Assembly (NCBI RefSeq): GCF_003334335.1
Contig: NZ_QOWQ01000014.1
Source of the DNA: Escherichia coli
GTDB lineage: Bacteria; Pseudomonadota; Gammaproteobacteria; Enterobacterales; Enterobacteriaceae
Direction: 5' to 3' (one strand)
Length of the DNA: 64,000 nt
In this document: one piece after another, positions 8,493 through 22,240 of the stretch
Numbering within the stretch: position 1 is the first letter of the stretch
How the letters are laid out: every line of letters begins with the position of its first letter
Notes under the pieces: model-generated
What the model saw: the letters and a program-made list of their open reading frames with translations, nothing else
Databases searched by the model: none
What the model was told of the DNA's origin: nothing
Position numbers and translations under genes: made by a program

Positions 8493-8770
8493 ATAAAAAA
8501 TAGCCCTGCAATGTAAATGGTTCTTTGGTGTTTTTCAGAAAGAATGTGATGAAGTGAAAAATTTGCATCACAAACCTGAAAAGAAATCCGTTTCCGGTTG
8601 CAAGCTCTTTATTCTCCAAAGCCTTGCGTAGCCTGAAGGTAATCGTTTGCGTAAATTCCTTTGTCAAGACCTGTTATCGCACAATGATTCGGTTATACTG
8701 TTCGCCGTTGTCCAACAGGACCGCCTATAAAGGCCAAAAATTTTATTGTTAGCTGAGTCAGGAGATGCGG

Positions 8771-10024
8771 ATGTTAAAGCGTGAAATGAACATTGCCGAT
8801 TATGATGCCGAACTGTGGCAGGCTATGGAGCAGGAAAAAGTACGTCAGGAAGAGCACATCGAACTGATCGCCTCCGAAAACTACACCAGCCCGCGCGTAA
8901 TGCAGGCGCAGGGTTCTCAGCTGACCAACAAATATGCTGAAGGTTATCCGGGCAAACGCTACTACGGCGGTTGCGAGTATGTTGATATCGTTGAACAACT
9001 GGCGATCGATCGTGCGAAAGAACTGTTCGGCGCTGACTACGCTAACGTCCAGCCGCACTCCGGCTCCCAGGCTAACTTTGCGGTCTACACCGCGCTGCTG
9101 GAACCAGGTGATACCGTTCTGGGTATGAACCTGGCGCATGGCGGTCACCTGACTCACGGTTCTCCGGTTAACTTCTCCGGTAAACTGTACAACATCGTTC
9201 CTTACGGTATCGATGCTACCGGTCATATCGACTACGCCGATCTGGAAAAACAAGCCAAAGAACACAAGCCGAAAATGATTATCGGTGGTTTCTCTGCATA
9301 TTCCGGCGTGGTGGACTGGGCGAAAATGCGTGAAATCGCTGACAGCATCGGTGCTTACCTGTTCGTTGATATGGCGCACGTTGCGGGCCTGGTTGCTGCT
9401 GGCGTCTACCCGAACCCGGTTCCTCATGCTCACGTTGTTACTACCACCACTCACAAAACCCTGGCGGGTCCGCGCGGCGGCCTGATCCTGGCGAAAGGTG
9501 GTAGCGAAGAGCTGTACAAAAAACTGAACTCTGCCGTTTTCCCTGGTGGTCAGGGCGGTCCGTTGATGCACGTAATCGCCGGTAAAGCGGTTGCTCTGAA
9601 AGAAGCGATGGAGCCTGAGTTCAAAACTTACCAGCAGCAGGTCGCTAAAAACGCTAAAGCGATGGTAGAAGTGTTCCTCGAGCGCGGCTACAAAGTGGTT
9701 TCCGGCGGCACTGATAACCACCTGTTCCTGGTTGATCTGGTTGATAAAAACCTGACCGGTAAAGAAGCAGACGCCGCTCTGGGCCGTGCTAACATCACCG
9801 TCAACAAAAACAGCGTACCGAACGATCCGAAGAGCCCGTTTGTGACCTCCGGTATTCGTGTAGGTACTCCGGCGATTACCCGTCGCGGCTTTAAAGAAGC
9901 CGAAGCGAAAGAACTGGCTGGCTGGATGTGTGACGTGCTGGACAGCATCAATGATGAAGCCGTTATCGAGCGCATCAAAGGTAAAGTTCTCGACATCTGC
10001 GCACGTTACCCGGTTTACGCATAA
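8771..10024 (+). CDS. glyA: serine hydroxymethyltransferase
   Basis: ORF track 8765..10024; start ATG 8771 preceded by GGAG (8761-8764); [23 protein letters not shown]...; PLP-lysine motif [14 protein letters not shown]. Confidence 0.95.
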
Positions 10025-10063
10025 GCGAAACGGTGATTTGCTGTCAATGTGCTCGTTGTTCAT

Positions 10064-10161
10064 GCCGGATGCGGCGTGAACGCCTTATCCGGCCTACAAA
10101 ACTTTGCAAATTCAATATATTGCAATCTCCGTGTAGGCCTGATAAGCGTAGCGCATCAGGC
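10064..10161. repeat. BIME (two inverted REP palindromes with spacer)
   Basis: gccggatgcggcgtgaacgccttatccggcctac ... gtaggcctgataagcgtagcgcatcaggc; near-identical to the cluster at 39121-39216. Confidence 0.8.
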
Positions 10162-10221
10162 AATTTTTCGTTTATGATCATCAAGGCTTCCTTCGGGAAG
10201 CCTTTCTACGTTATCGCGCCA

Positions 10222-11415
10222 TCAAATCTGTCGTAACTGCGCCTCAACATACAAATAGCCAATTCCCAGCACCTGTTGTGCGCGGCTTAATTGCCCAAAG
10301 CCAATTTGCGTCGCTTTCACGCTCGGTCCTTCGTCGCGGTCGAACGGGTTAAATCCTGTCTGGCGAATAATAGTATTAAGCCAGTTCTCACCAAAGGCAC
10401 AACTGCGACCGTACAACCAAATCTGATTAATATTGAGGATGTTGAGGAAGTTATACAGACTCAAACCAATGGCATTGGCAGAGCGATCAACCCAGCTGGT
10501 GATCCACGGTTCTCCACTTTGCCAGGCAGCGATTAACTGCGCTGTAGTCAGTTTTTCAGGATCAAGTTGAGTACTAACCGGTTGTGATTTTAGCCATACC
10601 CGCGCCTGTTTTTTTAATGCGCTTAACGAGGCGACGGTTTCCAGGCAGCCATAACGTCCACAGTCGCAGACGACGCCATCCGGATTAACGATGGTGTGAC
10701 CAATCTGTCCGCTACCATACAAACTGCCGCGATAAATTTGCTCGTTAATCACGAACGACGAGCCAATGCCGTAATCAACGTTGATCACGCAGAAATCCCG
10801 TTCCTGCGAATTATTTTGCCATTTCTCCGCCAGCGCCAGCATCACGCAGTCATTATCGACCATCACCCGAATGCCGAGCTTCTCTTCCAGCAGATATTTC
10901 ACCTCCACCGGCGTTGTCCACGGCGCTTGCGGCATGGTTTGCGACACGCCGGTCACAGGATCAACCTGACCGTGGATTGCCAACGCCAGGTTGATGGTAT
11001 GGTCCGGCCACAATTTACGGTGGCGATGCCAGCATTTTTCGATTTCGGACAGCAGCGCCTGCGGCGTCGGTGCATCAATCTGTAAATACTCAAATTCACC
11101 TTTCGGACTTAAACAAGCATTAGCAACCTGACACTCAATACTGGTGGGCGTCACGTTCAGGCACAGCGTCCAGTCACCTTCCGGCGCAATCAGCCATGTA
11201 CCGCTACTATGCCCGCGCGTCTGGCTTTCATCGTCAATATTCACCACCCGTTTTTCGCTTTCCAGTTCCTGCAAAATATTACTGACTGCCGGAATCGAAA
11301 TTTGCGCCAGCCGGGCCAGCGTTGATTTATTGGCGCGCTTTTGCCGGTACAGCAGTTCCAGAATCACGCATTTGTTATGGTGGCGAATCTGTTGATTATT
11401 AATGCAGGCTCTCAT
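10222..11415 (-). CDS. yphH: ROK-family (NagC/Mlc-like) transcriptional regulator, probable regulator of the divergent yph cluster
   Basis: ORF track 10222..11421 (-); first ATG is codon 3 (11413-11415); N-terminal HTH and C-terminal sugar-kinase-like ROK fold with Zn-binding C..C.C motif (CDCGRYGC). Confidence 0.85.
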   Translation of the reverse strand: MRACINNQQIRHHNKCVILELLYRQKRANKSTLARLAQISIPAVSNILQELESEKRVVNIDDESQTRGHSSGTWLIAPEGDWTLCLNVTPTSIECQVANACLSPKGEFEYLQIDAPTPQALLSEIEKCWHRHRKLWPDHTINLALAIHGQVDPVTGVSQTMPQAPWTTPVEVKYLLEEKLGIRVMVDNDCVMLALAEKWQNNSQERDFCVINVDYGIGSSFVINEQIYRGSLYGSGQIGHTIVNPDGVVCDCGRYGCLETVASLSALKKQARVWLKSQPVSTQLDPEKLTTAQLIAAWQSGEPWITSWVDRSANAIGLSLYNFLNILNINQIWLYGRSCAFGENWLNTIIRQTGFNPFDRDEGPSVKATQIGFGQLSRAQQVLGIGYLYVEAQLRQI

Positions 11416-11532
11416 CTTCACTAAACCTTGTTTAGTTAATTGCGTGATTATTCCGCGAAAACATTGCCAGATTGTTCAATACACTGCCACAAATCTTTTA
11501 ATTCAGTATGTCTTGTTAATATTGAGGGCACC

Positions 11533-14500
11533 ATGACTCCAGTAAAAGTGTGGCAAGAGCGCGTTGAGATCCCGACCTATGAAACCGGGCCGCAGGATAT
11601 ACATCCCATGTTCCTGGAAAATCGCGTTTATCAGGGATCGTCCGGCGCGGTTTATCCCTACGGCGTGACCGATACGCTGAGCGAGCAGAAAACCCTGAAA
11701 TCCTGGCAGGCGGTGTGGCTGGAAAACGACTACATCAAAGTGATGATCCTGCCGGAACTGGGCGGTCGGGTGCATCGCGCGTGGGATAAAGTGAAACAGC
11801 GCGATTTTGTTTATCACAATGAAGTCATTAAACCTGCGCTGGTGGGGCTGCTGGGGCCGTGGATTTCCGGTGGGATTGAGTTTAACTGGCCGCAACATCA
11901 TCGCCCGACCACCTTTATGCCCGTTGATTTCACCCTCGAAGCCCATGAAGACGGTGCACAGACGGTGTGGGTAGGCGAAACGGAGCCGATGCATGGTTTA
12001 CAGGTGATGACAGGTTTCACCCTGCGCCCTGACCGGGCGGCGCTGGAAATCGCCAGCCGCGTCTATAACGGGAACGCCACGCCGCGTCATTTCTTGTGGT
12101 GGGCCAACCCGGCAGTGAAAGGGGGGGAAGGGCATCAGAGCGTCTTCCCGCCGGATGTAACGGCGGTGTTTGATCACGGCAAACGGGCCGTCTCCGCTTT
12201 CCCCATCGCTACCGGCACTTACTACAAAGTGGACTACTCCGCTGGAGTGGACATTTCTCGCTATAAAAATGTGCCTGTTCCAACCTCATATATGGCCGAA
12301 AAATCGCAGTACGATTTTGTCGGCGCGTGGTGTCACGATGAAGATGGCGGTTTGCTGCACGTTGCCAACCACCATATTGCGCCAGGTAAAAAACAGTGGA
12401 GTTGGGGACACAGTGAATTTGGCCAGGCGTGGGATAAGAGTCTGACCGACAATAACGGCCCGTATATCGAACTGATGACCGGTATTTTTGCCGATAACCA
12501 GCCCGATTTTACCTGGCTTGATGCTTACGAAGAGAAGCGTTTTGAGCAGTATTTCCTGCCTTATCATTCTTTGGGCATGGTGCAAAATGCCTCCCGCGAT
12601 GCGGTGATAAAACTCCAGCGTAGTAAGCGGGGGATTGAGTGGGGGCTGTATGCCATCTCTCCGTTGAACGGATACCGCCTGGCGATCCGCGAAATCGGTA
12701 AATGCAACGCGTTACTTGATGATGCCGTGGCACTGATGCCTGCGACCGCCATCCAGGGCGTGTTGCACGGTATCAATCCTGAAAGGCTGACCATTGAGCT
12801 CTCCGATGCCGACGGCAATATTGTACTGAGTTATCAGGAACATCAGCCGCAAGCGTTGCCGTTACCGGACGTCGCCAAAGCGCCACTGGCAGCACAAGAC
12901 ATTACCAGTACAGATGAAGCCTGGTTTATCGGTCAGCATCTGGAGCAATATCATCACGCCAGCCGTTCACCGTTCGATTACTACCTGCGCGGCGTGGCGC
13001 TGGACCCGCTGGATTATCGCTGTAACCTGGCGCTGGCGATGCTGGAATATAACCGCGCAGATTTCCCGCAAGCGGTGGCGTATGCCACTCAGGCTCTGAA
13101 ACGCGCACATTCGCTGAACAAAAATCCGCAGTGCGGACAGGCGAGTTTGATTCGCGCCAGTGCTTACGAACGTCAGGGACAATATCAACAAGCCGAAGAG
13201 GATTTCTGGCGTGCGGTCTGGAGCGGCAACAGCAAAGCCGGTGGCTATTATGGCCTGGCACGACTGGCGGCGCGTAATGGTAACTTCGACGCTGGTCTGG
13301 ATTTTTGCCAACAAAGTCTTCGCGCCTGCCCAACCAATCAGGAAGTGCTTTGCCTGCATAATCTGCTGCTGGTGTTAAGTGGTCGTCAGGACAACGCGCG
13401 TGTGCAGCGCGAGAAACTGCTGCGCGATTATCCGCTGAACGCCACTCTGTGGTGGCTGAACTGGTTCGATGGTCGTAGCGAATCAGCTCTCGCGCAGTGG
13501 CGCGGTCTGTGTCAGGGACGCGACGTTAACGCCCTGATGACCGCCGGGCAACTGATTAACTGGGGAATGCCCACCCTGGCGGCAGAGATGCTGAACGCAC
13601 TGGACTGCCAGCGCACGCTGCCGCTTTACCTGCAAGCCAGCTTGCTGCCGAAAGCCGAACGTGGCGAACTGGTCGCAAAAGCCATTGATGTCTTCCCGCA
13701 GTTTGTCCGTTTCCCGAATACGCTGGAAGAAGTGGCGGCGCTGGAGAGTATTGAAGAGTGCTGGTTTGCTCGCCATTTACTAGCTTGCTTCTACTACAAC
13801 AAACGTAGCTACAACAAAGCCATTGCCTTTTGGCAACGTTGCGTAGAGATGTCGCCGGAGTTTGCCGACGGCTGGCGCGGGTTAGCGATCCATGCGTGGA
13901 ATAAGCAACACGATTATGAGCTGGCCGCGCGTTATCTTGATAATGCTTATCAGCTTGCGCCGCAGGATGCACGTCTGCTTTTCGAACGGGATTTGCTGGA
14001 TAAGTTAAGTGGAGCCACACCGGAGAAACGACTGGCGCGTCTGGAAAATAATCTGGAAATTGCGCTGAAACGCGACGACATGACCGCAGAACTGCTCAAT
14101 TTGTGGCATCTCACGGGTCAGGCAGACAAAGCGGCGGACATTCTCGCCACGCGCAAATTCCACCCGTGGGAAGGCGGGGAAGGGAAGGTCACCAGTCAGT
14201 TTATCCTCAACCAGTTATTACGCGCCTGGCAGCATCTTGATGCCAGACAGCCGCAGCAGGCCTGCGAACTGCTTCATGCCGCGCTGCATTATCCGGAGAA
14301 TTTAAGCGAAGGCCGTTTACCGGGGCAAACTGATAACGACATCTGGTTCTGGCAGGCGATATGCGCCAACGCGCAGGGCGATGAAACTGAAGCGACGCGT
14401 TGTTTACGTCTGGCGGCGACCGGCGATCGCACTATTAACATTCACAGTTATTACAACGATCAGCCGGTTGATTATCTCTTCTGGCAAGGGATGGCGCTGC

Positions 14501-14814
14501 GACTGCTGGGCGAACAACAAACCGCACAGCAACTGTTTAGTGAAATGAAACAGTGGGCGCAAGAGATGGCGAAAACCAGTATCGAAGCGGATTTCTTTGC
14601 CGTCTCGCAACCTGACTTGTTGTCGCTGTATGGCGATTTACAACAGCAGCATAAAGAAAAATGCCTGATGGTGGCGATGCTGGCGTCCGCGGGACTCGGG
14701 GAGGTTGCGCAATATGAGTCTGCTCGCGCTGAATTGACGGCGATTAATCCGGCTTGGCCGAAAGCGGCATTATTCACCACCGTGATGCCTTTTATTTTTA
14801 ACCGCGTTCACTAA
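11533..14814 (+). CDS. yphG: large (1093-aa) protein of unknown function, N-terminal beta-rich domain plus C-terminal TPR-like helical repeats
   Basis: ORF track 11440..14814; start taken at ATG 11533 (MTPVKVWQER...); divergent from yphH and followed by the ABC transporter genes. Confidence 0.85.
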   Translation: MTPVKVWQERVEIPTYETGPQDIHPMFLENRVYQGSSGAVYPYGVTDTLSEQKTLKSWQAVWLENDYIKVMILPELGGRVHRAWDKVKQRDFVYHNEVIKPALVGLLGPWISGGIEFNWPQHHRPTTFMPVDFTLEAHEDGAQTVWVGETEPMHGLQVMTGFTLRPDRAALEIASRVYNGNATPRHFLWWANPAVKGGEGHQSVFPPDVTAVFDHGKRAVSAFPIATGTYYKVDYSAGVDISRYKNVPVPTSYMAEKSQYDFVGAWCHDEDGGLLHVANHHIAPGKKQWSWGHSEFGQAWDKSLTDNNGPYIELMTGIFADNQPDFTWLDAYEEKRFEQYFLPYHSLGMVQNASRDAVIKLQRSKRGIEWGLYAISPLNGYRLAIREIGKCNALLDDAVALMPATAIQGVLHGINPERLTIELSDADGNIVLSYQEHQPQALPLPDVAKAPLAAQDITSTDEAWFIGQHLEQYHHASRSPFDYYLRGVALDPLDYRCNLALAMLEYNRADFPQAVAYATQALKRAHSLNKNPQCGQASLIRASAYERQGQYQQAEEDFWRAVWSGNSKAGGYYGLARLAARNGNFDAGLDFCQQSLRACPTNQEVLCLHNLLLVLSGRQDNARVQREKLLRDYPLNATLWWLNWFDGRSESALAQWRGLCQGRDVNALMTAGQLINWGMPTLAAEMLNALDCQRTLPLYLQASLLPKAERGELVAKAIDVFPQFVRFPNTLEEVAALESIEECWFARHLLACFYYNKRSYNKAIAFWQRCVEMSPEFADGWRGLAIHAWNKQHDYELAARYLDNAYQLAPQDARLLFERDLLDKLSGATPEKRLARLENNLEIALKRDDMTAELLNLWHLTGQADKAADILATRKFHPWEGGEGKVTSQFILNQLLRAWQHLDARQPQQACELLHAALHYPENLSEGRLPGQTDNDIWFWQAICANAQGDETEATRCLRLAATGDRTINIHSYYNDQPVDYLFWQGMALRLLGEQQTAQQLFSEMKQWAQEMAKTSIEADFFAVSQPDLLSLYGDLQQQHKEKCLMVAMLASAGLGEVAQYESARAELTAINPAWPKAALFTTVMPFIFNRVH

Positions 14815-14910
14815 ACCCTATTAACTGTAATATTTGAGCGGCACGCGCTGCCGCTCATCACAAAATAATTAGAATAAGCCGTTGTTAATAAAAACCCTAC
14901 AGGAGGCTCT

Positions 14911-15894
14911 ATGCCTACAAAAATGAGAACAACCCGTAATCTATTATTAATGGCTACGCTATTAGGTAGCGCACTATTTGCCAGGGCTGCGGAAAAAGAA
15001 ATGACCATTGGCGCAATATACCTTGATACTCAGGGATACTACGCTGGAGTGCGTCAGGGCGTTCAGGATGCGGCAAAAGATTCCTCAGTACAAGTTCAGT
15101 TAATAGAAACTAACGCCCAGGGTGATATTTCGAAAGAAAGTACCTTTGTTGATACCCTCGTGGCGCGTAATGTCGATGCCATTATTTTATCGGCAGTGTC
15201 TGAAAATGGCAGTAGCCGTACCGTTCGTCGCGCCAGTGAAGCGGGCATTCCGGTGATTTGCTACAACACCTGTATTAATCAAAAGGGGGTCGATAAATAT
15301 GTCTCGGCGTATCTGGTCGGCGATCCGCTGGAATTTGGTAAAAAACTGGGTAACGCTGCCGCTGATTATTTTATTGCCAATAAAATTGACCAGCCGAAAA
15401 TTGCCGTCATCAATTGCGAAGCCTTTGAAGTTTGTGTGCAGCGACGTAAAGGATTTGAAGAAGTTTTAAAATCCCGCGTTCCCGGCGCGCAAATTGTCGC
15501 TAATCAGGAAGGGACTGTTTTAGATAAAGCGATTTCCGTTGGTGAAAAACTAATTATCTCCACGCCGGATCTCAACGCCATTATGGGGGAATCGGGCGGT
15601 GCGACACTCGGCGCGGTAAAAGCGGTACGTAATCAAAATCAGGCCGGAAAAATTGCTGTTTTCGGTTCGGATATGACAACCGAAATTGCTCAGGAGCTGG
15701 AAAACAATCAGGTGCTGAAAGCGGTAGTGGATATTTCCGGTAAGAAAATGGGCAATGCTGTTTTCGCGCAAACATTGAAGGTTATCAATAAACAAGCCGA
15801 CGGTGAAAAAGTGATTCAGGTGCCTATCGATCTCTATACCAAAACGGAAGACGGTAAACAGTGGCTGGCAACGCACGTTGATGGTCTGCCCTAA
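14911..15894 (+). CDS. yphF: periplasmic sugar-binding protein of an ABC transporter
   Basis: AGGAGG RBS at 14901-14906; cleavable signal peptide; ribose-binding-protein-like fold by sequence character. Confidence 0.9.
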   Translation: MPTKMRTTRNLLLMATLLGSALFARAAEKEMTIGAIYLDTQGYYAGVRQGVQDAAKDSSVQVQLIETNAQGDISKESTFVDTLVARNVDAIILSAVSENGSSRTVRRASEAGIPVICYNTCINQKGVDKYVSAYLVGDPLEFGKKLGNAAADYFIANKIDQPKIAVINCEAFEVCVQRRKGFEEVLKSRVPGAQIVANQEGTVLDKAISVGEKLIISTPDLNAIMGESGGATLGAVKAVRNQNQAGKIAVFGSDMTTEIAQELENNQVLKAVVDISGKKMGNAVFAQTLKVINKQADGEKVIQVPIDLYTKTEDGKQWLATHVDGLP

Positions 15895-15916
15895 TCGCTG
15901 ATTCGCAGAGGTCCCT

Positions 15917-17428
15917 ATGTTCACGGCAACAGAGGCAGTCCCGGTAGCAAAAGTGGTGGCAGGAAATAAGCGTTATCCCGGCGTCGTTGCGCTGGATAAC
16001 GTTAACTTCACGCTCAATAAAGGCGAAGTTCGTGCGCTGTTAGGTAAAAACGGCGCGGGCAAATCGACTCTCATTCGAATGCTTACCGGCAGCGAACGCC
16101 CGGATAGCGGTGATATCTGGATTGGCGAGACGCGACTGGAAGGTGACGAAGCTACGCTGACTCGCCGTGCCGCTGAACTGGGGGTGCGCGCGGTTTATCA
16201 GGAGTTAAGTCTGGTGGAAGGGCTGACAGTGGCGGAAAACCTCTGCCTCGGTCAGTGGCCCCGCCGCAACGGCATGATTGATTACCTGCAAATGGCGCAG
16301 GATGCCCAACGTTGCTTACAGGCGCTGGGCGTTGACGTTAGTCCTGAACAACTTGTTTCAACGCTAAGCCCGGCGCAAAAGCAGCTGGTGGAAATTGCGC
16401 GGGTGATGAAGGGCGAGCCGCGCGTGGTCATTCTTGATGAACCTACCAGTTCGCTTGCGAGTGCGGAAGTTGAACTGGTGATCAGCGCGGTGAAAAAGAT
16501 GTCGGCACTGGGCGTGGCGGTGATTTATGTCAGCCACCGGATGGAAGAAATTCGCCGCATTGCCTCCTGTGCCACCGTTATGCGCGATGGTCAGGTGGCG
16601 GGCGATGTGATGCTCGAAAACACCTCCACGCATCATATTGTGTCGCTGATGCTCGGGCGCGATCACGTTGATATTGCGCCGGTAGCCCCTCAGGAAATTG
16701 TGGATCAGGCCGTGCTGGAAGTCCGTGCGTTACGCCATAAGCCCAAGCTGGAGGATATCAGTTTTACGCTACGTCGTGGCGAAGTGCTCGGCATTGCTGG
16801 TCTGCTGGGGGCAGGGCGCAGTGAATTGCTGAAGGCGATTGTTGGGCTGGAGGAGTATGAACAGGGCGAAATTGTTATCAACGGCGAGAAAATCACGCGC
16901 CCCGATTACGGCGACATGCTGAAACGCGGCATTGGCTATACGCCAGAAAACCGCAAAGAAGCGGGGATCATTCCCTGGTTGGGCGTTGACGAAAATACAG
17001 TGCTGACCAATCGGCAAAAAATCAGCGCCAACGGTGTGCTGCAATGGTCCACCATCCGCCGCCTGACCGAAGAGGTGATGCAGCGGATGACGGTCAAGGC
17101 CGCCAGTAGCGAAACACCCATCGGCACGCTTTCTGGTGGCAATCAGCAAAAAGTGGTGATCGGTCGTTGGGTCTATGCTGCCAGCCAGATTTTGTTGCTC
17201 GACGAGCCAACGCGCGGCGTCGATATCGAAGCCAAACAGCAGATTTACCGTATTGTCCGTGAGCTGGCTGCCGAAGGAAAAAGCGTGGTGTTTATCTCCA
17301 GTGAAGTGGAGGAGTTGCCGCTGGTGTGTGACCGCATCCTGTTATTACAGCACGGCACGTTCTCGCAGGAGTTTCACGCTCCGGTCAATGTGGATGAGCT
17401 GATGTCCGCCATTCTGTCTGTGCACTGA
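15917..17428 (+). CDS. yphE: ABC transporter ATP-binding protein with two fused nucleotide-binding domains
   Basis: Two Walker A motifs (GKNGAGKST and GLLGAGRSEL) and two signature motifs (LSPAQKQL, LSGGNQQK). Confidence 0.9.
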   Translation: MFTATEAVPVAKVVAGNKRYPGVVALDNVNFTLNKGEVRALLGKNGAGKSTLIRMLTGSERPDSGDIWIGETRLEGDEATLTRRAAELGVRAVYQELSLVEGLTVAENLCLGQWPRRNGMIDYLQMAQDAQRCLQALGVDVSPEQLVSTLSPAQKQLVEIARVMKGEPRVVILDEPTSSLASAEVELVISAVKKMSALGVAVIYVSHRMEEIRRIASCATVMRDGQVAGDVMLENTSTHHIVSLMLGRDHVDIAPVAPQEIVDQAVLEVRALRHKPKLEDISFTLRRGEVLGIAGLLGAGRSELLKAIVGLEEYEQGEIVINGEKITRPDYGDMLKRGIGYTPENRKEAGIIPWLGVDENTVLTNRQKISANGVLQWSTIRRLTEEVMQRMTVKAASSETPIGTLSGGNQQKVVIGRWVYAASQILLLDEPTRGVDIEAKQQIYRIVRELAAEGKSVVFISSEVEELPLVCDRILLLQHGTFSQEFHAPVNVDELMSAILSVH

Positions 17429-17452
17429 TGAATTTTACCGAGGAACCTGAAG

Positions 17453-18451
17453 ATGTCTGCTTCGTCATTACCATTGCCGCAGGGCAAGAGCGTCTCGCTC
17501 AAACAATTTGTCAGTCGCCATATTAATGAGATCGGTTTGCTGGTGGTGATTGCCATTCTTTATCTGGTCTTCTCCCTGAACGCGCCTGGCTTTATCTCAT
17601 TGAATAACCAGATGAACGTGCTGCGCGATGCCGCCACCATTGGGATTGCCGCCTGGGCGATGACGCTGATTATTATCTCCGGTGAAATTGATGTCAGCGT
17701 TGGGCCGATGGTGGCTTTTGTCTCGGTGTGCCTGGCATTTTTGCTGCAATTTGAAGTTCCGCTGGCGGTGGCGTGCCTGCTGGTGTTGCTGTTAGGCGCG
17801 CTGATGGGAACGCTGGCCGGGGTGCTGCGCGGCGTGTTTAATGTACCAAGTTTCGTTGCCACACTGGGGCTGTGGAGCGCCCTGCGCGGAATGGGGCTGT
17901 TTATGACGAACGCACTGCCAGTGCCGATTGATGAAAACGAGGTGCTGGACTGGCTGGGCGGACAATTTCTCGGTGTGCCGGTATCCGCGCTGATCATGAT
18001 TGTGTTGTTTGCGCTGTTTGTGTTCATCAGCCGCAAAACCGCCTTCGGGCGCTCGGTTTTTGCCGTTGGCGGTAATGCTACGGCGGCGCAGTTGTGCGGC
18101 ATCAACGTTCGTCGGGTGCGCATTCTTATCTTTACCCTTTCGGGATTATTAGCGGCGGTGACCGGCATTTTGTTGGCGGCGCGCCTCAGTTCTGGTAACG
18201 CAGGTGCCGCAAACGGTCTGGAGTTTGACGTCATCGCCGCGGTCGTGGTCGGCGGTACGGCACTTTCCGGCGGTCGCGGTTCCCTGTTCGGTACATTGCT
18301 TGGTGTGCTGGTGATTACGCTAATCGGTAACGGTCTGGTGCTGCTCGGTATTAACTCCTTTTTCCAGCAGGTGGTACGCGGCGTCATCATCGTGGTGGCG
18401 GTGCTGGCGAATATCTTGCTGACCCAGCGAAGCAGTAAAGCGAAACGCTAA
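17453..18451 (+). CDS. yphD: ABC transporter permease (ribose/monosaccharide-type)
   Basis: 332-aa polytopic hydrophobic protein directly downstream of yphE. Confidence 0.9.
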   Translation: MSASSLPLPQGKSVSLKQFVSRHINEIGLLVVIAILYLVFSLNAPGFISLNNQMNVLRDAATIGIAAWAMTLIIISGEIDVSVGPMVAFVSVCLAFLLQFEVPLAVACLLVLLLGALMGTLAGVLRGVFNVPSFVATLGLWSALRGMGLFMTNALPVPIDENEVLDWLGGQFLGVPVSALIMIVLFALFVFISRKTAFGRSVFAVGGNATAAQLCGINVRRVRILIFTLSGLLAAVTGILLAARLSSGNAGAANGLEFDVIAAVVVGGTALSGGRGSLFGTLLGVLVITLIGNGLVLLGINSFFQQVVRGVIIVVAVLANILLTQRSSKAKR

Positions 18452-18516
18452 ACCTTAACGCCCCTGGCGCGGGTGCGGCAGGGATGAAAATTAATCGTAT
18501 TGTTAATGAGGGATTT

Positions 18517-19578
18517 ATGAAAACGATGCTGGCAGCTTATTTACCAGGAAATTCGACCGTCGATCTGCGGGAAGTTGCGGTGCCGACGCCGGGGATTAAC
18601 CAGGTACTGATCAAAATGAAATCCTCCGGGATTTGCGGAAGCGATGTCCACTATATCTATCATCAACACCGTGCCACAGCGGCGGCACCCGATAAACCGT
18701 TATACCAGGGCTTTATCAACGGTCATGAACCGTGCGGGCAGATTGTGGCGATGGGGCAAGGCTGCCGCCATTTTAAAGAGGGCGACCGCGTGCTGGTGTA
18801 TCACATTTCTGGCTGTGGTTTTTGCCCGAACTGCCGTCGCGGTTTTCCTATTTCTTGTACTGGCGAAGGAAAAGCGGCTTACGGCTGGCAGCGTGACGGC
18901 GGTCATGCCGAATACTTGCTGGCGGAAGAAAAAGATCTGATCCTCCTGCCGGATGCGCTGAGCTACGAAGATGGTGCGTTTATCAGTTGCGGCGTTGGTA
19001 CAGCGTATGAAGGAATTTTGCGCGGCGAAGTTTCCGGCAGTGATAACGTGCTGGTGGTCGGTCTGGGGCCAGTCGGCATGATGGCGATGATGCTGGCGAA
19101 AGGTCGCGGTGCAAAACGGATCATCGGCGTTGATATGCTGCCGGAACGTCTGGCGATGGCAAAACAGTTAGGGGTGATGGATCACGGCTATTTAGCAACC
19201 ACCGAAGGTCTGCCGCAGATTATCGCCGAACTCACCCACGGTGGCGCGGATGTTGCGCTCGATTGTTCCGGTAATGCCGCAGGTCGCTTGCTGGCACTGC
19301 AATCCACCGCTGACTGGGGACGGGTGGTTTACATTGGTGAAACCGGAAAAGTGGAATTCGAGGTCAGCGCCGATCTGATGCACCATCAACGGCGGATTAT
19401 CGGCTCCTGGGTGACCAGTCTGTTCCATATGGAAAAATGCGCCCATGATCTGACGGACTGGAAGCTGTGGCCGCGTAACGCCATTACCCATCGCTTCTCG
19501 CTGGAACAGGCAGGTGATGCCTATGCGCTGATGGCGAGCGGCAAATGCGGGAAAGTTGTGATTAACTTCCCGGATTAA
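18517..19578 (+). CDS. yphC: Zn-dependent alcohol/polyol dehydrogenase (MDR family)
   Basis: ORF track 18484..19578; start ATG 18517 after GAGGG; catalytic Zn motif GHEPCGQIV and structural Zn cysteines CGFCPNCRRG. Confidence 0.85.
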   Translation: MKTMLAAYLPGNSTVDLREVAVPTPGINQVLIKMKSSGICGSDVHYIYHQHRATAAAPDKPLYQGFINGHEPCGQIVAMGQGCRHFKEGDRVLVYHISGCGFCPNCRRGFPISCTGEGKAAYGWQRDGGHAEYLLAEEKDLILLPDALSYEDGAFISCGVGTAYEGILRGEVSGSDNVLVVGLGPVGMMAMMLAKGRGAKRIIGVDMLPERLAMAKQLGVMDHGYLATTEGLPQIIAELTHGGADVALDCSGNAAGRLLALQSTADWGRVVYIGETGKVEFEVSADLMHHQRRIIGSWVTSLFHMEKCAHDLTDWKLWPRNAITHRFSLEQAGDAYALMASGKCGKVVINFPD

Positions 19579-19589
19579 GGAGTTAGCGG

Positions 19590-20462
19590 ATGACCATCTA
19601 TACCTTATCCCACGGGTCGCTAAAGCTGGACGTTTCTGACCAGGGCGGCGTAATCGAAGGCTTCTGGCGCGATACGACGCCGCTCTTACGTCCTGGTAAA
19701 AAAAGCGGTGTGGCAACCGATGCCTCATGTTTTCCGCTGGTGCCATTTGCAAACCGGGTGAGCGGCAATCGTTTTGTCTGGCAGGGGCGTGAGTATCAAC
19801 TGCAACCGAATGTTGAGTGGGATGCGCACTATCTACACGGCGATGGCTGGCTGGGCGAGTGGCAATGTGTCTCGCACAGCGATGATAGTTTGTGTCTGGT
19901 GTATGAACATCGCAGCGGTGTCTATCACTATCGGGTAAGTCAGGCGTTTCATTTAACGGCGGATACGCTGACGGTGACGCTCTCTGTCACCAATCAAGGG
20001 GCAGAGACGCTGCCATTTGGTACCGGCTGGCATCCTTATTTTCCGTTGTCGCCGCAAACGCGGATTCAGGCACAGGCGAGCGGTTACTGGCTGGAGCGGG
20101 AGCAGTGGCTGGCGGGTGAGTTTTGCGAGCAGCTACCGCAGGAACTGGATTTTAACCAGCCCGCGCCGTTGCCGCGCCAGTGGGTGAACAATGGTTTTGC
20201 CGGATGGAATGGTCAGGCCCGCATCGAGCAGCCGCAGGAAGGTTATGCCATCATCATGGAAACGACGCCACCTGCACCGTGTTATTTCATCTTTGTTTCC
20301 GACCCTGCGTTTGATAAAGGATATGCGTTTGATTTCTTCTGTCTGGAACCGATGAGCCATGCGCCGGATGATCATCATCGCCCGGAAGGGGGTGATCTCA
20401 TTGCGCTAGCACCAGGGGAATCAACAACTTCAGAGATGTCGTTGCGGGTAGAGTGGCTGTAA
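19590..20462 (+). CDS. yphB: aldose 1-epimerase (mutarotase)-like protein
   Basis: 290-aa ORF 12 nt after yphC; family assignment is from recognition of the YphB product, not from motif analysis. Confidence 0.85.
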   Translation: MTIYTLSHGSLKLDVSDQGGVIEGFWRDTTPLLRPGKKSGVATDASCFPLVPFANRVSGNRFVWQGREYQLQPNVEWDAHYLHGDGWLGEWQCVSHSDDSLCLVYEHRSGVYHYRVSQAFHLTADTLTVTLSVTNQGAETLPFGTGWHPYFPLSPQTRIQAQASGYWLEREQWLAGEFCEQLPQELDFNQPAPLPRQWVNNGFAGWNGQARIEQPQEGYAIIMETTPPAPCYFIFVSDPAFDKGYAFDFFCLEPMSHAPDDHHRPEGGDLIALAPGESTTSEMSLRVEWL

Positions 20463-20471
20463 TTTATTAAA

Positions 20472-20503
20472 TGCCGGATAAGGCGTTCACGCCGCATCCG
20501 GCA
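20472..20503. repeat. single REP palindrome
   Basis: tgccggataaggcgttcacgccgcatccggca between convergent yphB and yphA. Confidence 0.7.
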
Positions 20504-20509
20504 TCTTTC

Positions 20510-20932
20510 CTAACGCCGATCGAGAGAAATTGCCCCCGGCCCGGTAATTGCCAATAGCAAGAACGCGCCAGCGATACTGACATTCTTCCAGAAATTAATC
20601 ATATTTGGCCCAACCGCATCGCCGGTCATATCCCAGTAATGGTGACCAATCACCGCCGTACCCAGCGTGTAGAAAATAAACAGCACCGCCAGCGGACGGG
20701 TGAAAAAGCCAAGCACGATTAATATCGCGGCGGGCACTTCCATAACTACCGCAATAATCGCTGCCAGCATCGGCATTGGCGCGCCCAACGAGGCCATATA
20801 TTGGACCGTACCGTCAAAGCCCATCATTTTGGGAAAACCAAAAATAATGAAAATTAAGACCACGGCGATACGGGCAATTAATAACAAAACGGGGCGGGCA
20901 GCTCCAAAATCAAAATAACGTAGTGTGTTCAT
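20510..20932 (-). CDS. yphA: DoxX-family inner membrane protein
   Basis: ORF track 20510..21004 (-); start taken at the internal ATG 20930-20932 (MNTLRYFDF..., 140 aa); four predicted TM helices. Confidence 0.8.
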
Positions 20933-21028
20933 AACCAATCCCTTTGCAAGATAATGTGATTTAAACGTAATACACACTCTTGCACCTCGCCACGCCCCAG
21001 GCATTGAGATATTCGCTAATTATCCTGG

Positions 21029-22240
<1,212 letters not shown>

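Follow-up and report, generated by a model that had tools for sequence, protein, structure and literature searches.

The yphG gene of Escherichia coli encodes a protein that is likely to act on sugars. Because relatives in three other phyla are usually encoded next to sugar importers, galactosidases and mutarotases, the most probable role of YphG is that of a sugar-processing enzyme not yet described. We tentatively propose that it is a cytoplasmic, cofactor-independent carbohydrate-processing enzyme with a site common to both of its domains, and that it probably cleaves a small galactoside. The data are best explained if YphG is neither a transport component nor a generic scaffold. The features discussed below are collected in Table 1, where positions refer to the window, the whole analysed stretch of 64,000 nucleotides.

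Table 1. Features of the yphG locus and of the encoded protein
Feature	Position	Strand	Description
yphH	10222..11421	-	divergent ROK-family regulator
yphH-yphG control region	11422..11532	.	divergent; TTGCGTGA box 11440-11447 and inverted repeat ACACTG-N17-CAGTAT 11481-11509
yphG	11533..14814	+	1093 codons and stop; ORF identical to RefSeq WP_001311033.1
Residues 1-345	11533..12567	+	DUF5107 beta-supersandwich, aldose-1-epimerase-type fold; putative sugar-binding and catalytic domain
GPWISGGIEFNWPQHHRP, residues 108-125	11854..11907	+	invariant or nearly so; most conserved stretch of the family
CHDEDGGLLHVANHH, residues 267-281	12331..12375	+	originally predicted candidate site; family alignment
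GPYIELMTGIFADNQPDF, residues 309-326	12457..12510	+	invariant E313, N322, Q323, D325
Residues 357-435	12601..12837	+	small variable beta-sandwich linker domain; seven strands
Residues 460-1093	12910..14811	+	TPR-type helical solenoid; 35 helices, ~17 hairpins; TPR sequence matches
FHPWEGGEG loop, residues 876-884	14158..14184	+	joins two solenoid helices; column conservation
yphF-yphE-yphD	14911..18451	+	CUT2-type monosaccharide ABC importer: weakly RbsB/AlsB/MglB-like binding protein, AraG-like ATPase, RbsC-like permease
yphC	18484..19578	+	zinc-dependent polyol/sugar dehydrogenase family
yphB	19590..20462	+	aldose 1-epimerase family (PDB 3nre)

yphG is an intact core gene

Translation of yphG gives a single stop at the end of the frame, and the opposite strand contains many stops. 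The ATG at 11533 is preceded by a GAGGG Shine-Dalgarno sequence (11524-11528). RefSeq uses the same start and names the product "DUF5107 domain-containing protein". A longer ORF of 1124 aa from the TTG at 11440 would leave just 18 bp to the divergent yphH, and this extension is unsupported by homologue alignments, which begin at residue 1-4. At a coverage of at least 80%, yphG was found in 5420 of 5426 complete E. coli genomes. The dN/dS of the whole gene is 0.05-0.10 and that of the N-domain 0.007-0.04, so the gene is under strong purifying selection. Thus, yphG is an intact and strongly conserved core gene of E. coli. According to the original prediction, evidence of a fusion artefact or a pseudogene would have spoken against it; neither turned out to be the case. 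The genome count and dN/dS rule out a pseudogene. Fusion is ruled out by the length of the family proteins (225 of the 269 counted have at least 900 aa) and by the solved homologue 5cd6, which has both parts and superposes on the YphG model over 546 of 575 residues. A TAG was seen at codon 811 in one divergent Escherichia strain. Rfam detected no structured RNA within 10000-21500, and promoter and terminator scans near yphG gave nothing exceeding the shuffled expectation.

YphG has a three-part architecture

The AlphaFold model of YphG is of high confidence (pLDDT 95) and has three parts, with residues 1-435 predicted as all-beta and the 35 helices spread across 460-1092. This architecture, as it appears in the model, is described here for the first time. 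The N-terminal ~380 aa had been expected to be beta-rich and enzyme-like, and the composition of residues 1-380 (W 3.9, Y 4.7, G 8.7, H 4.2%) and the predicted fold agree with this. They do not form a single unit of ~380 aa, but two domains, 1-345 and 357-435. The second of these has a mean column conservation of 0.34 and the highest dN/dS among the three parts (0.09-0.24). The expected TPR-type C-terminal part is borne out by the helices and by the Pfam match to TPR_16 (499-560, E 9e-7); residues 471-1093 contain 13.3% A and 13.5% L, as described earlier. TPR profile matches coincide here with helical hairpin repeats forming a superhelix, whose structural matches are CTPR, PilF, OGT/SPY and APC subunits. 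When the N-domain was modelled on its own, the confidence dropped, which the shallower alignment (51 sequences versus 75) could partly account for.

As anticipated, YphG has neither a signal peptide nor transmembrane segments. The maximal Kyte-Doolittle mean over 19 residues is 1.36 and the N-terminus, MTPVKVWQERVEIPTYE, is polar; by these features the protein is cytoplasmic. Domain search assigned no well-characterised family. Pfam reports only the TPR match and DUF5107 (PF17128; 39-324, E 3.1e-55, model positions 5-281 of 310). Full-text literature searches found no functional study of yphG, DUF5107, 5CD6/BDI_1685/PF17128 or the yph genes; yphG occurred only as a PCR marker for Klebsiella pneumoniae and in a list of expression responses to ethanol. 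By sequence, a single relative has a solved structure, BDI_1685 of Parabacteroides distasonis (PDB 5cd6), a structural-genomics "TPR-domain containing protein" with no reported or assigned function. It is 21-23% identical to YphG and about half as long (575-580 aa), lacks the distal ~500 solenoid residues, and has Q121, H122 and R124 of the PQHHR motif replaced.

Conserved residues of the mutarotase-like domain and the solenoid

In the model, residues 1-345 adopt the aldose-1-epimerase supersandwich fold of the galactose-mutarotase type. The likeness is structural: GalM, YeaD/hexose-6-phosphate mutarotase and YphB (PF01263) are 8-15% identical to YphG and give no sequence or profile match. Aldose_epim (PF01263) does not match YphG even at E <= 10, and hhalign of the DUF5107 core against the GalM and YphB alignments gave a probability of <1% in both local and global modes. 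YphG also differs from aldose 1-epimerases in an extra N-terminal strand, a second beta-sandwich and the 640-residue solenoid, and a true member of that family, YphB, is encoded in its own operon.

The catalytic set of Lactococcus lactis GalM comprises His96, His170, Asp243 and Glu304. The residues kept universally in the N-domain of the YphG family are E64, N65, K86, K100, E116, H122, H123, R124, N179, N192, H215, K287, E313, N322, Q323 and D325. E116, H122, H123 and R124 are found in 71-74 of 75 family sequences, including the secreted clade, and E313 in all 75 and also in 5cd6. By the order of the motifs, R124 and E313 may match the mutarotase Arg and Glu, with N192 in place of His170; E313 would then be the equivalent of the catalytic Glu. 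A metal or catalytic site had been proposed at HDEDGGLLHVANHH. This stretch is conserved only in part. Across the family, 59 of 75 sequences retain H276 and 47 retain H280; the YphG clade shows no variation at G273, H276, A278 and H280, but H268, D269, E270 and D271 vary even in close relatives. In the solenoid, eight polar residues are near-invariant (Q472, Y483, D491, W563, R782, E818, R833 and E880). The FHPWEGGEG loop lies where the helical part reaches its highest windowed conservation, with column values of 0.93 for F876, 0.99 for E880, 0.89 for G881, 0.81 for G882 and 0.80 for E883.

Operon and gene neighbourhoods

yphG is co-directional with yphF-E-D-C-B, with successive gaps of 96, 22, 24, 32 and 11 nt. 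The divergent YphH is described as an uncharacterised ROK repressor (PMC4288165), and in 11 of 12 gammaproteobacterial loci its homologues adjoin that of yphG. In the control region, the TTGCGTGA box and the inverted repeat both recur in Enterobacterales loci with a full-length spacer; two loci with a spacer of ~52 bp keep the repeat and have no box. The repeat is a candidate YphH operator. YphG contains no ABC, permease or periplasmic-binding-protein domain and no membrane or export segment that would mark a component of a CUT2 transporter. It is a neighbour of the transporter and no part of YphDEF. Outside the close relatives of E. coli, yphG is not accompanied by yphFEDC, and E. coli may therefore use a pathway that departs from the family norm. 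In the literature, a yphC knockout grew slightly less well on myo-inositol in a marginal assay.

Hundreds of homologues of ~1,050-1,150 aa, with identity down to ~35%, have the full-length DUF5107-TPR architecture. The ~1,100-aa form is seen in Gammaproteobacteria, Bacteroidota, Firmicutes and Bifidobacterium, and the family comprises ~3,900 clusters at 50% identity. Its members are frequent among gut Bacteroidales, Lachnospiraceae, Paenibacillus and marine Flavobacteriia, where they lie within loci degrading galactans and galactosides. A homologue search seeded with a Bacteroidales protein returned only gut-metagenome matches and "Phocaeicola sp.".

We surveyed 5 kb around each of 78 yphG homologues. 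The original prediction considered a protein such as YphG unusual beside a sugar importer; it is instead the family norm, since a monosaccharide-type transporter lies within this distance in 53 loci. An AraC or ROK regulator, often divergent, was found in 52, galactosidase-type glycoside hydrolases in 43, and an aldose epimerase (YphB-like or GalM) in 20. The importer is YphDEF in E. coli and a sugar-porter MFS protein in most other bacteria. YphD/E-like importers also stand beside yphG homologues in four Firmicutes loci (L015, L028, L061 and L072), the last two of which also encode a YphF-like binding protein. The regulator is of the ROK type in Gammaproteobacteria and of the AraC type elsewhere. 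A subclade bearing signal peptides sits in SusC/D polysaccharide-utilisation loci and has identical core residues. Little was learned from the unannotated neighbours (an upstream ORF in Aeromonas, c30, c32 and two proteins of L050).

Which reaction would YphG carry out?

An enzymatic or scaffolding step rather than transport had been suggested for YphG. The domains agree with a non-transport role. Scaffolding is the weaker option, because the solenoid has its eight near-invariant polar residues and the exported subclade keeps the core residues. Another reading is a non-catalytic sugar-binding adaptor, with a mutarotase-like domain that senses a sugar and a TPR solenoid that docks onto the AraC/ROK regulator, the transporter or another protein. 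In its favour, contacts between proteins are the usual task of TPR solenoids, and a regulator gene is frequently adjacent. However, the signal-peptide members cannot reach cytoplasmic regulators, the surface motifs of YphG stay invariant while the regulator partner changes, and the AraC partners already carry an AraC_binding sensor domain of their own. Invariant His, Glu, Asp, Arg and Lys residues at this density, together with the low dN/dS of the N-domain, are more typical of an active site. We regard the adaptor as improbable.

In the enzymatic reading that we prefer, the working part of YphG would be the divergent supersandwich of residues 1-345. Its conserved loops are predicted to pack against the solenoid, whose near-invariant polar residues would take part in building or closing the sugar site; that the active site is shared by both domains seems reasonably probable. 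The substrate would be a small sugar delivered by the co-encoded importer, most likely galactose-configured and monosaccharide-sized, such as a short galactoside. The reaction would preferably be a glycosidase-type cleavage at the anomeric carbon, although we hold this particular step to be somewhat doubtful: the closest folds are true mutarotases and not glycosidases, and there is no sequence-level match to CAZy-related Pfam families, nor any Pfam or NCBIfam match to known GH or PL families. YphB, the mutarotase, would then receive the freed aldose, possibly followed in E. coli by the dehydrogenase YphC, and in the absence of the sugar the cluster would be kept repressed by YphH.

The usual cargo of both importer types is a monosaccharide, a point in favour of non-hydrolytic chemistry on a free sugar. 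In the main rival reading, YphG could be a ring-opening enzyme on the mutarotase scaffold (a specialised mutarotase, a pyranose/furanose interconverter, or an aldose-ketose or C2 isomerase) that would bring galactose or a related aldose, once imported, into a form suited to standard catabolism. We consider this rather unlikely. A plain mutarotase looks redundant where a canonical epimerase is co-encoded, and the exported members of SusC/D loci fit an isomerase or mutarotase poorly. The profile comparison with the GalM and YphB families is not significant, and, by motif order, the two catalytic His of GalM appear to lack a clear conserved equivalent. No kinase or aldolase for an unusual ketose product occurs in the clusters recurring among the loci, and the long solenoid with its conserved polar residues is left unexplained.

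Mutarotase, dehydrogenase and lactonase together make a known design. E. coli YphG, YphB and YphC could likewise form an oxidative aldose route (mutarotase, then aldose dehydrogenase, then lactone or aldonate processing), with YphG possibly a sugar-lactonase feeding galactonate/tagaturonate pathways. YphC belongs to the Zn-dependent sugar/polyol dehydrogenases, and at locus L050 a yphG homologue heads a run with a weakly glucose-dehydrogenase-like protein, a Zn-ADH, tagaturonate reductase and an altronate-dehydratase-like protein. This arrangement was seen once, however; a YphC-like Zn-ADH gene occurs in only 8 of the 78 loci (within 5 kb in 6), the common module is without a dehydrogenase, and a lactonase would not be exported to the periplasm of SusC/D loci. 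Such a route is very improbable. Uronate isomerase, galactofuranose pyranase, an L-galactose route, and cyclitol or pyruvylated-galactose processing were also considered but lack support, each having at most one locus in its favour.

Comparison with other carbohydrate-active proteins

The beta-1,2-glucanases OpgG/OpgD (GH186) resemble YphG in structure far more weakly than mutarotases do; unlike YphG, they are periplasmic and lack the TPR part, and they have no motifs in common with it. O-GlcNAc transferase and SPINDLY, the top structural matches for residues 460-1093, also combine a long TPR superhelix and a carbohydrate-active domain in one chain, but in the reverse order and with a GT-B catalytic fold instead of a supersandwich. 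In those enzymes, the TPR binds protein substrates. Heparinase II/III-like proteins, PL15/PL17 alginate lyases and dermatan-sulfate epimerase join a helical toroid to a beta-sandwich in the opposite domain order to YphG. The helical part is an (alpha/alpha) toroid and not TPR, and these enzymes act on uronic-acid polymers, which the neighbourhoods of YphG do not suggest. It is conceivable, though we think it unlikely, that DUF5107-TPR proteins are a new carbohydrate-active family, in which an epimerase-derived supersandwich has turned hydrolytic or otherwise bond-cleaving and the active site is partly contributed by the TPR solenoid. If so, YphG would be the first TPR-capped glycosidase.

YphG is among the larger E. 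coli core proteins that lack a function. The question is now directly testable, as the chemical class of the substrate, the residues to mutate, the likely YphH operator and tractable organisms can be named. If YphG proves to be an enzyme, its reaction would be a cofactor-free step, so far missing, that links the uptake of sugar to the mutarotase/Leloir stage, and a mutarotase fold with a TPR lid would be a new way to build a sugar active site. Should DUF5107-TPR proteins be such a new family, E. coli would have a cryptic pathway for a small galactoside (glyceryl- or methyl-galactosides or short galactobioses, for example), and the relatives of YphG would fill an unrecognised galactan/galactoside step in gut and soil Bacteroidota and Firmicutes.

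yphG is an intact gene under selection

The window is E. coli chromosome, with the gene order qseE-qseG-glrR-glnB / hmpA / glyA / yphH / yphG-yphF-yphE-yphD-yphC-yphB / yphA / hca. The yphG ATG is preceded by a GAGGG ribosome-binding site. A longer frame of 1124 aa, starting from TTG at 11440, is unsupported: it would shrink the spacer to the divergent yphH to 18 bp, and homologues from other phyla begin aligning at residue 1-4. Of 5426 complete E. coli genomes, 5420 carry yphG at a coverage of at least 80%, chromosomal in every case. When compared to other Escherichia and Enterobacter alleles, its dN/dS is 0.05-0.10 over the whole gene and 0.007-0.04 over the first 345 codons. A nonsense codon (811, CAG to TAG) occurs in one divergent Escherichia strain, SCPM-O-B-8794 (L002:2379-5657), whose allele differs from that of the window by a dS of 0.36; the inactivation is an isolated case. 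On this evidence, the reading frame is real, intact and under selection. yphG is neither a pseudogene nor a fusion artefact, and its product belongs to no well-characterised family, as the original prediction supposed.

Elsewhere in the window, an open reading frame fully antisense to glyA probably results from codon usage alone. For strain WP5-S17-ESBL-10 (L001:18630-19837), the annotation of hcaD gives a frameshift and an internal stop; the equivalent position in the window holds an intact frame.

Coordinates of features in the window (nucleotides) and in YphG (residues)
Feature	Position	Strand	Description
glyA	8765-10024	+	
ORF antisense to glyA	8774-10063	-	429 codons
TTGCGTGA box	11440-11447		yphH-yphG intergenic; possible CRP-like half-site
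ACACTG-N17-CAGTAT	11481-11509		inverted repeat; candidate YphH operator
yphG	11533-14814	+	exact match to RefSeq CDS, 'DUF5107 domain-containing protein', 1093 aa
yphG-yphF spacer	14815-14910		
Spacer hairpin	14835-14857		9 bp, G+C-rich, 20 nt past yphG stop
yphF	14911-15894		46.1% G+C, GC3 43%
Region for comparison with MFS gene after yphB	20462-20510		
hcaD position	21029-22231		400-codon ORF
Pfam DUF5107 match	residues 39-324		E 3e-55
Beta-supersandwich	residues 1-345		AlphaFold2 model
Linker	residues 357-435		small seven-stranded beta-sandwich, AlphaFold2 model
Solenoid	residues 460-1092		35 helices, ~17 hairpins, AlphaFold2 model

Domain structure and conserved residues of YphG

YphG has neither a signal peptide nor a hydrophobic segment (highest 19-residue hydropathy mean 1.36), in agreement with the original prediction. 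By composition, Trp, Tyr, Gly and His are abundant in the front third, Ala and Leu in the rear part. The profile search and structure prediction that had been proposed were carried out. Besides DUF5107, Pfam matched TPR repeats, and NCBIfam gave sub-threshold TPR matches only. The AlphaFold2 model, built from an alignment of 75 full-length relatives, reached a pLDDT of 95.1 and a pTM of 0.93. It turned out that YphG fails the sequence test for the mutarotase family: the Pfam search gave no mutarotase match, and profile-profile alignment of its DUF5107 with mutarotases was not significant. Therefore, DUF5107 is a very divergent branch of the mutarotase fold. The gene and the family were already catalogued and one homologue structure was solved (5cd6, from Parabacteroides distasonis), none with a function; the firm assignment of the fold to the aldose-1-epimerase superfamily, sequence membership failing, is new.

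Constraint on the supersandwich is unusually strong: that of E. coli is 52-57% identical to those of Bacteroidota, Firmicutes or Bifidobacterium, and about 120 of its columns are invariant (51 sequences). Among 75 sequences, the N-domain core consists of E64, N65, K86, K100, E116, H122, H123, R124, N179, W190, N192, H215, K287, E313, N322, Q323 and D325, of which 5cd6 retains E64, N65, K100, E116, H123, N192, H215, K287 and E313. A metal or catalytic role had been suggested for HDEDGG...HVANHH; its histidines H276 and H280 are kept in 59 and 47 of the 75 sequences, and the HDED part is variable, so the motif is conserved only in part. The linker varies, and the solenoid, of moderate conservation overall, nevertheless carries near-invariant polar residues (Q472, Y483, D491, W563, R782, E818, R833 and E880, the last inside an FHPWEGGEG loop), which is new evidence for functional constraint on the TPR part.

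When residues 1-450 were modelled alone, the strands were still confident and the most conserved loops (28-42, 103-126, 216-234, 246-251, 283-296 and 318-325) lost confidence, the two models being built from alignments of unequal depth. We infer that these loops pack against the solenoid, and this reading suggests a predicted active site common to both parts. It is reasonably likely that the site lies in the mutarotase-type cleft, where the solenoid would probably complete it.

The gene neighbourhood is conserved across phyla

Searching with the N-domain gave about 3,900 clusters, formed at 50% identity and mostly of ~1,100 aa. A genome scan gave 80 loci: 12 in Gammaproteobacteria, about 42 in Bacteroidota, 25 in Firmicutes and one in Bifidobacterium. 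ORFs were called and clustered, and cluster representatives were annotated; the homologue was called in 78 loci, and neighbours were counted within 5 kb of it. A XylE-like sugar-porter MFS gene is present in 44 of the 78 (immediately adjoining in 36), a monosaccharide-type importer of any kind (MFS or CUT2 ABC) in 53, an AraC (non-gamma) or ROK (gamma) regulator in 52, galactosidase-type glycosidases in 43 and an aldose 1-epimerase (GalM or YphB-like) in 20. The glycosidases include GH2 enzymes (BT4151 exo-beta-1,4-galactosidase-related, beta-glucuronidase-like and LacZ-type), GH35, GH97 alpha-galactosidase and GH27/36-like enzymes. Signal-like N-termini were found in 0/78 homologues, and in the neighbours GH2 (25/35), GH35 (7/12) and GH97 (6/7). 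Independent Bacteroidales gene calls with precomputed Pfam agree with this picture, giving AraC / Sugar_tr-DUF5107-Aldose_epim in gut species with GH36, GH2 and SASA esterases close by. Marine Flavobacteriia loci have sulfatases and an SGNH esterase in addition. In Firmicutes, GH35 and GH2 genes adjoin the homologue, as do YphD/E-like CUT2 importers in four loci (L015, L028, L061 and L072), the last two with a YphF-like binding protein. This conserved module is new; from the neighbourhoods, the substrate of YphG would be galactose-configured and of monosaccharide size.

In a Ruminococcaceae MAG (L050:9929-20585), the homologue is first in a same-strand run with a weakly glucose-dehydrogenase-like protein, a YphC-related Zn-ADH, tagaturonate reductase and an altronate-dehydratase-like protein. 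The run resembles an oxidative galactose/galactonate route.

Probable origin and possible control of the E. coli locus

In E. coli and E. albertii, as in a few relatives, the order is yphH / yphG-yphFEDC-yphB. Citrobacter, Cedecea, Budvicia aquatica, Aeromonas and Photobacterium have yphH-like / yphG-MFS-yphB-like, the Enterobacteriaceae examples at the same chromosomal position and the Enterobacterales ones lacking an ABC importer and yphC. Based on this comparison, the recurrent module is regulator, YphG, importer and mutarotase. Enterobacter sp. BIGb0383 and Budvicia diplopodorum (L004, L006) combine the ABC/YphC block with a sugar-porter MFS gene after yphB; the E. coli locus has no MFS gene. 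The ABC importer and YphC are confined to close relatives of E. coli, and appear to be a lineage-specific addition, the MFS having been lost from E. coli. The composition of yphF, set against yphG, E, D, C and B (G+C 54-56%, GC3 58-67%), suggests another origin or other codon selection for the binding-protein gene.

The intergenic box recurs in Enterobacterales loci with a full-length spacer, and the inverted repeat also in two short-spacer (~52-bp) loci; loci with the ABC importer and loci with the MFS importer are both represented. The hairpin behind yphG (stem GAGCGGCAC GCG.. GUGCCGCUC-type, TGAGCGGCACGCGCTGCCGCTCA) has no U-tract after it; folding of the 101-nt spacer gives -22.1 kcal/mol (z = -2.5 vs shuffles). 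The hairpin may act as a partial terminator or as an mRNA-stability element fixing the ratio of yphG to transporter expression.

A subclade bearing signal peptides limits the possible functions

Clear signal peptides are present in about 19 of 225 full-length family members, relatives at 35-47% identity; by its sequences, this appears to be a secreted subclade, new for the family. Of six whose gene context was examined, two adjoin SusC/D genes: P0246, which has two GH16 genes nearby, and P0249, near which GH16, sulfatases and beta-helix proteins are encoded. The others have no SusC/D: P0244 (a PfkB kinase gene as the only neighbour), P0264 (SASA and AXE1 esterases), P0239 (oxidoreductase and xylose-isomerase-like TIM-barrel protein) and P0252 (short-chain dehydrogenase and aldose epimerase). 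On metagenome contigs L083/L084 and L086, signal-peptide members are flanked by GH16 genes within SusC/D loci, in L083/L084 with sulfatases and beta-helix proteins besides; the loci resemble ones for the utilisation of (sulfated) glycans that include a DUF5107-TPR component.

Since the subclade retains the N-domain core and solenoid residues, the common chemistry must serve a purpose in the periplasm as well as in the cytoplasm. This counts against ATP- or NAD-dependent steps and against a cytoplasmic co-regulator. It is improbable that YphG is a non-catalytic sensor or adaptor. YphG is very probably an uncharacterised sugar-acting enzyme. Our tentative choice of reaction is cleavage of a small galactoside, which YphG would attack at the anomeric carbon; it is favoured by the secreted members, the many invariant carboxylates, GH186 as precedent for a catalytic supersandwich, and the fit of the yph module to the classical transporter-glycosidase-mutarotase design. 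Small galactosides can be CUT2 cargo, and PDB relatives of YphF include 3ga5, MglB with glyceryl-galactoside. The main rival, a non-hydrolytic ring-opening enzyme for free galactose or a related aldose, is favoured by the monosaccharide-type importers and a fold close to true mutarotases; the secreted subclade speaks somewhat against a mutarotase or isomerase. We consider this rival somewhat less likely than cleavage. A lactonase-type step with YphC is least probable of all. YphG is a well-defined, testable gap, not a startling one, in the sugar metabolism of E. coli and gut bacteria.
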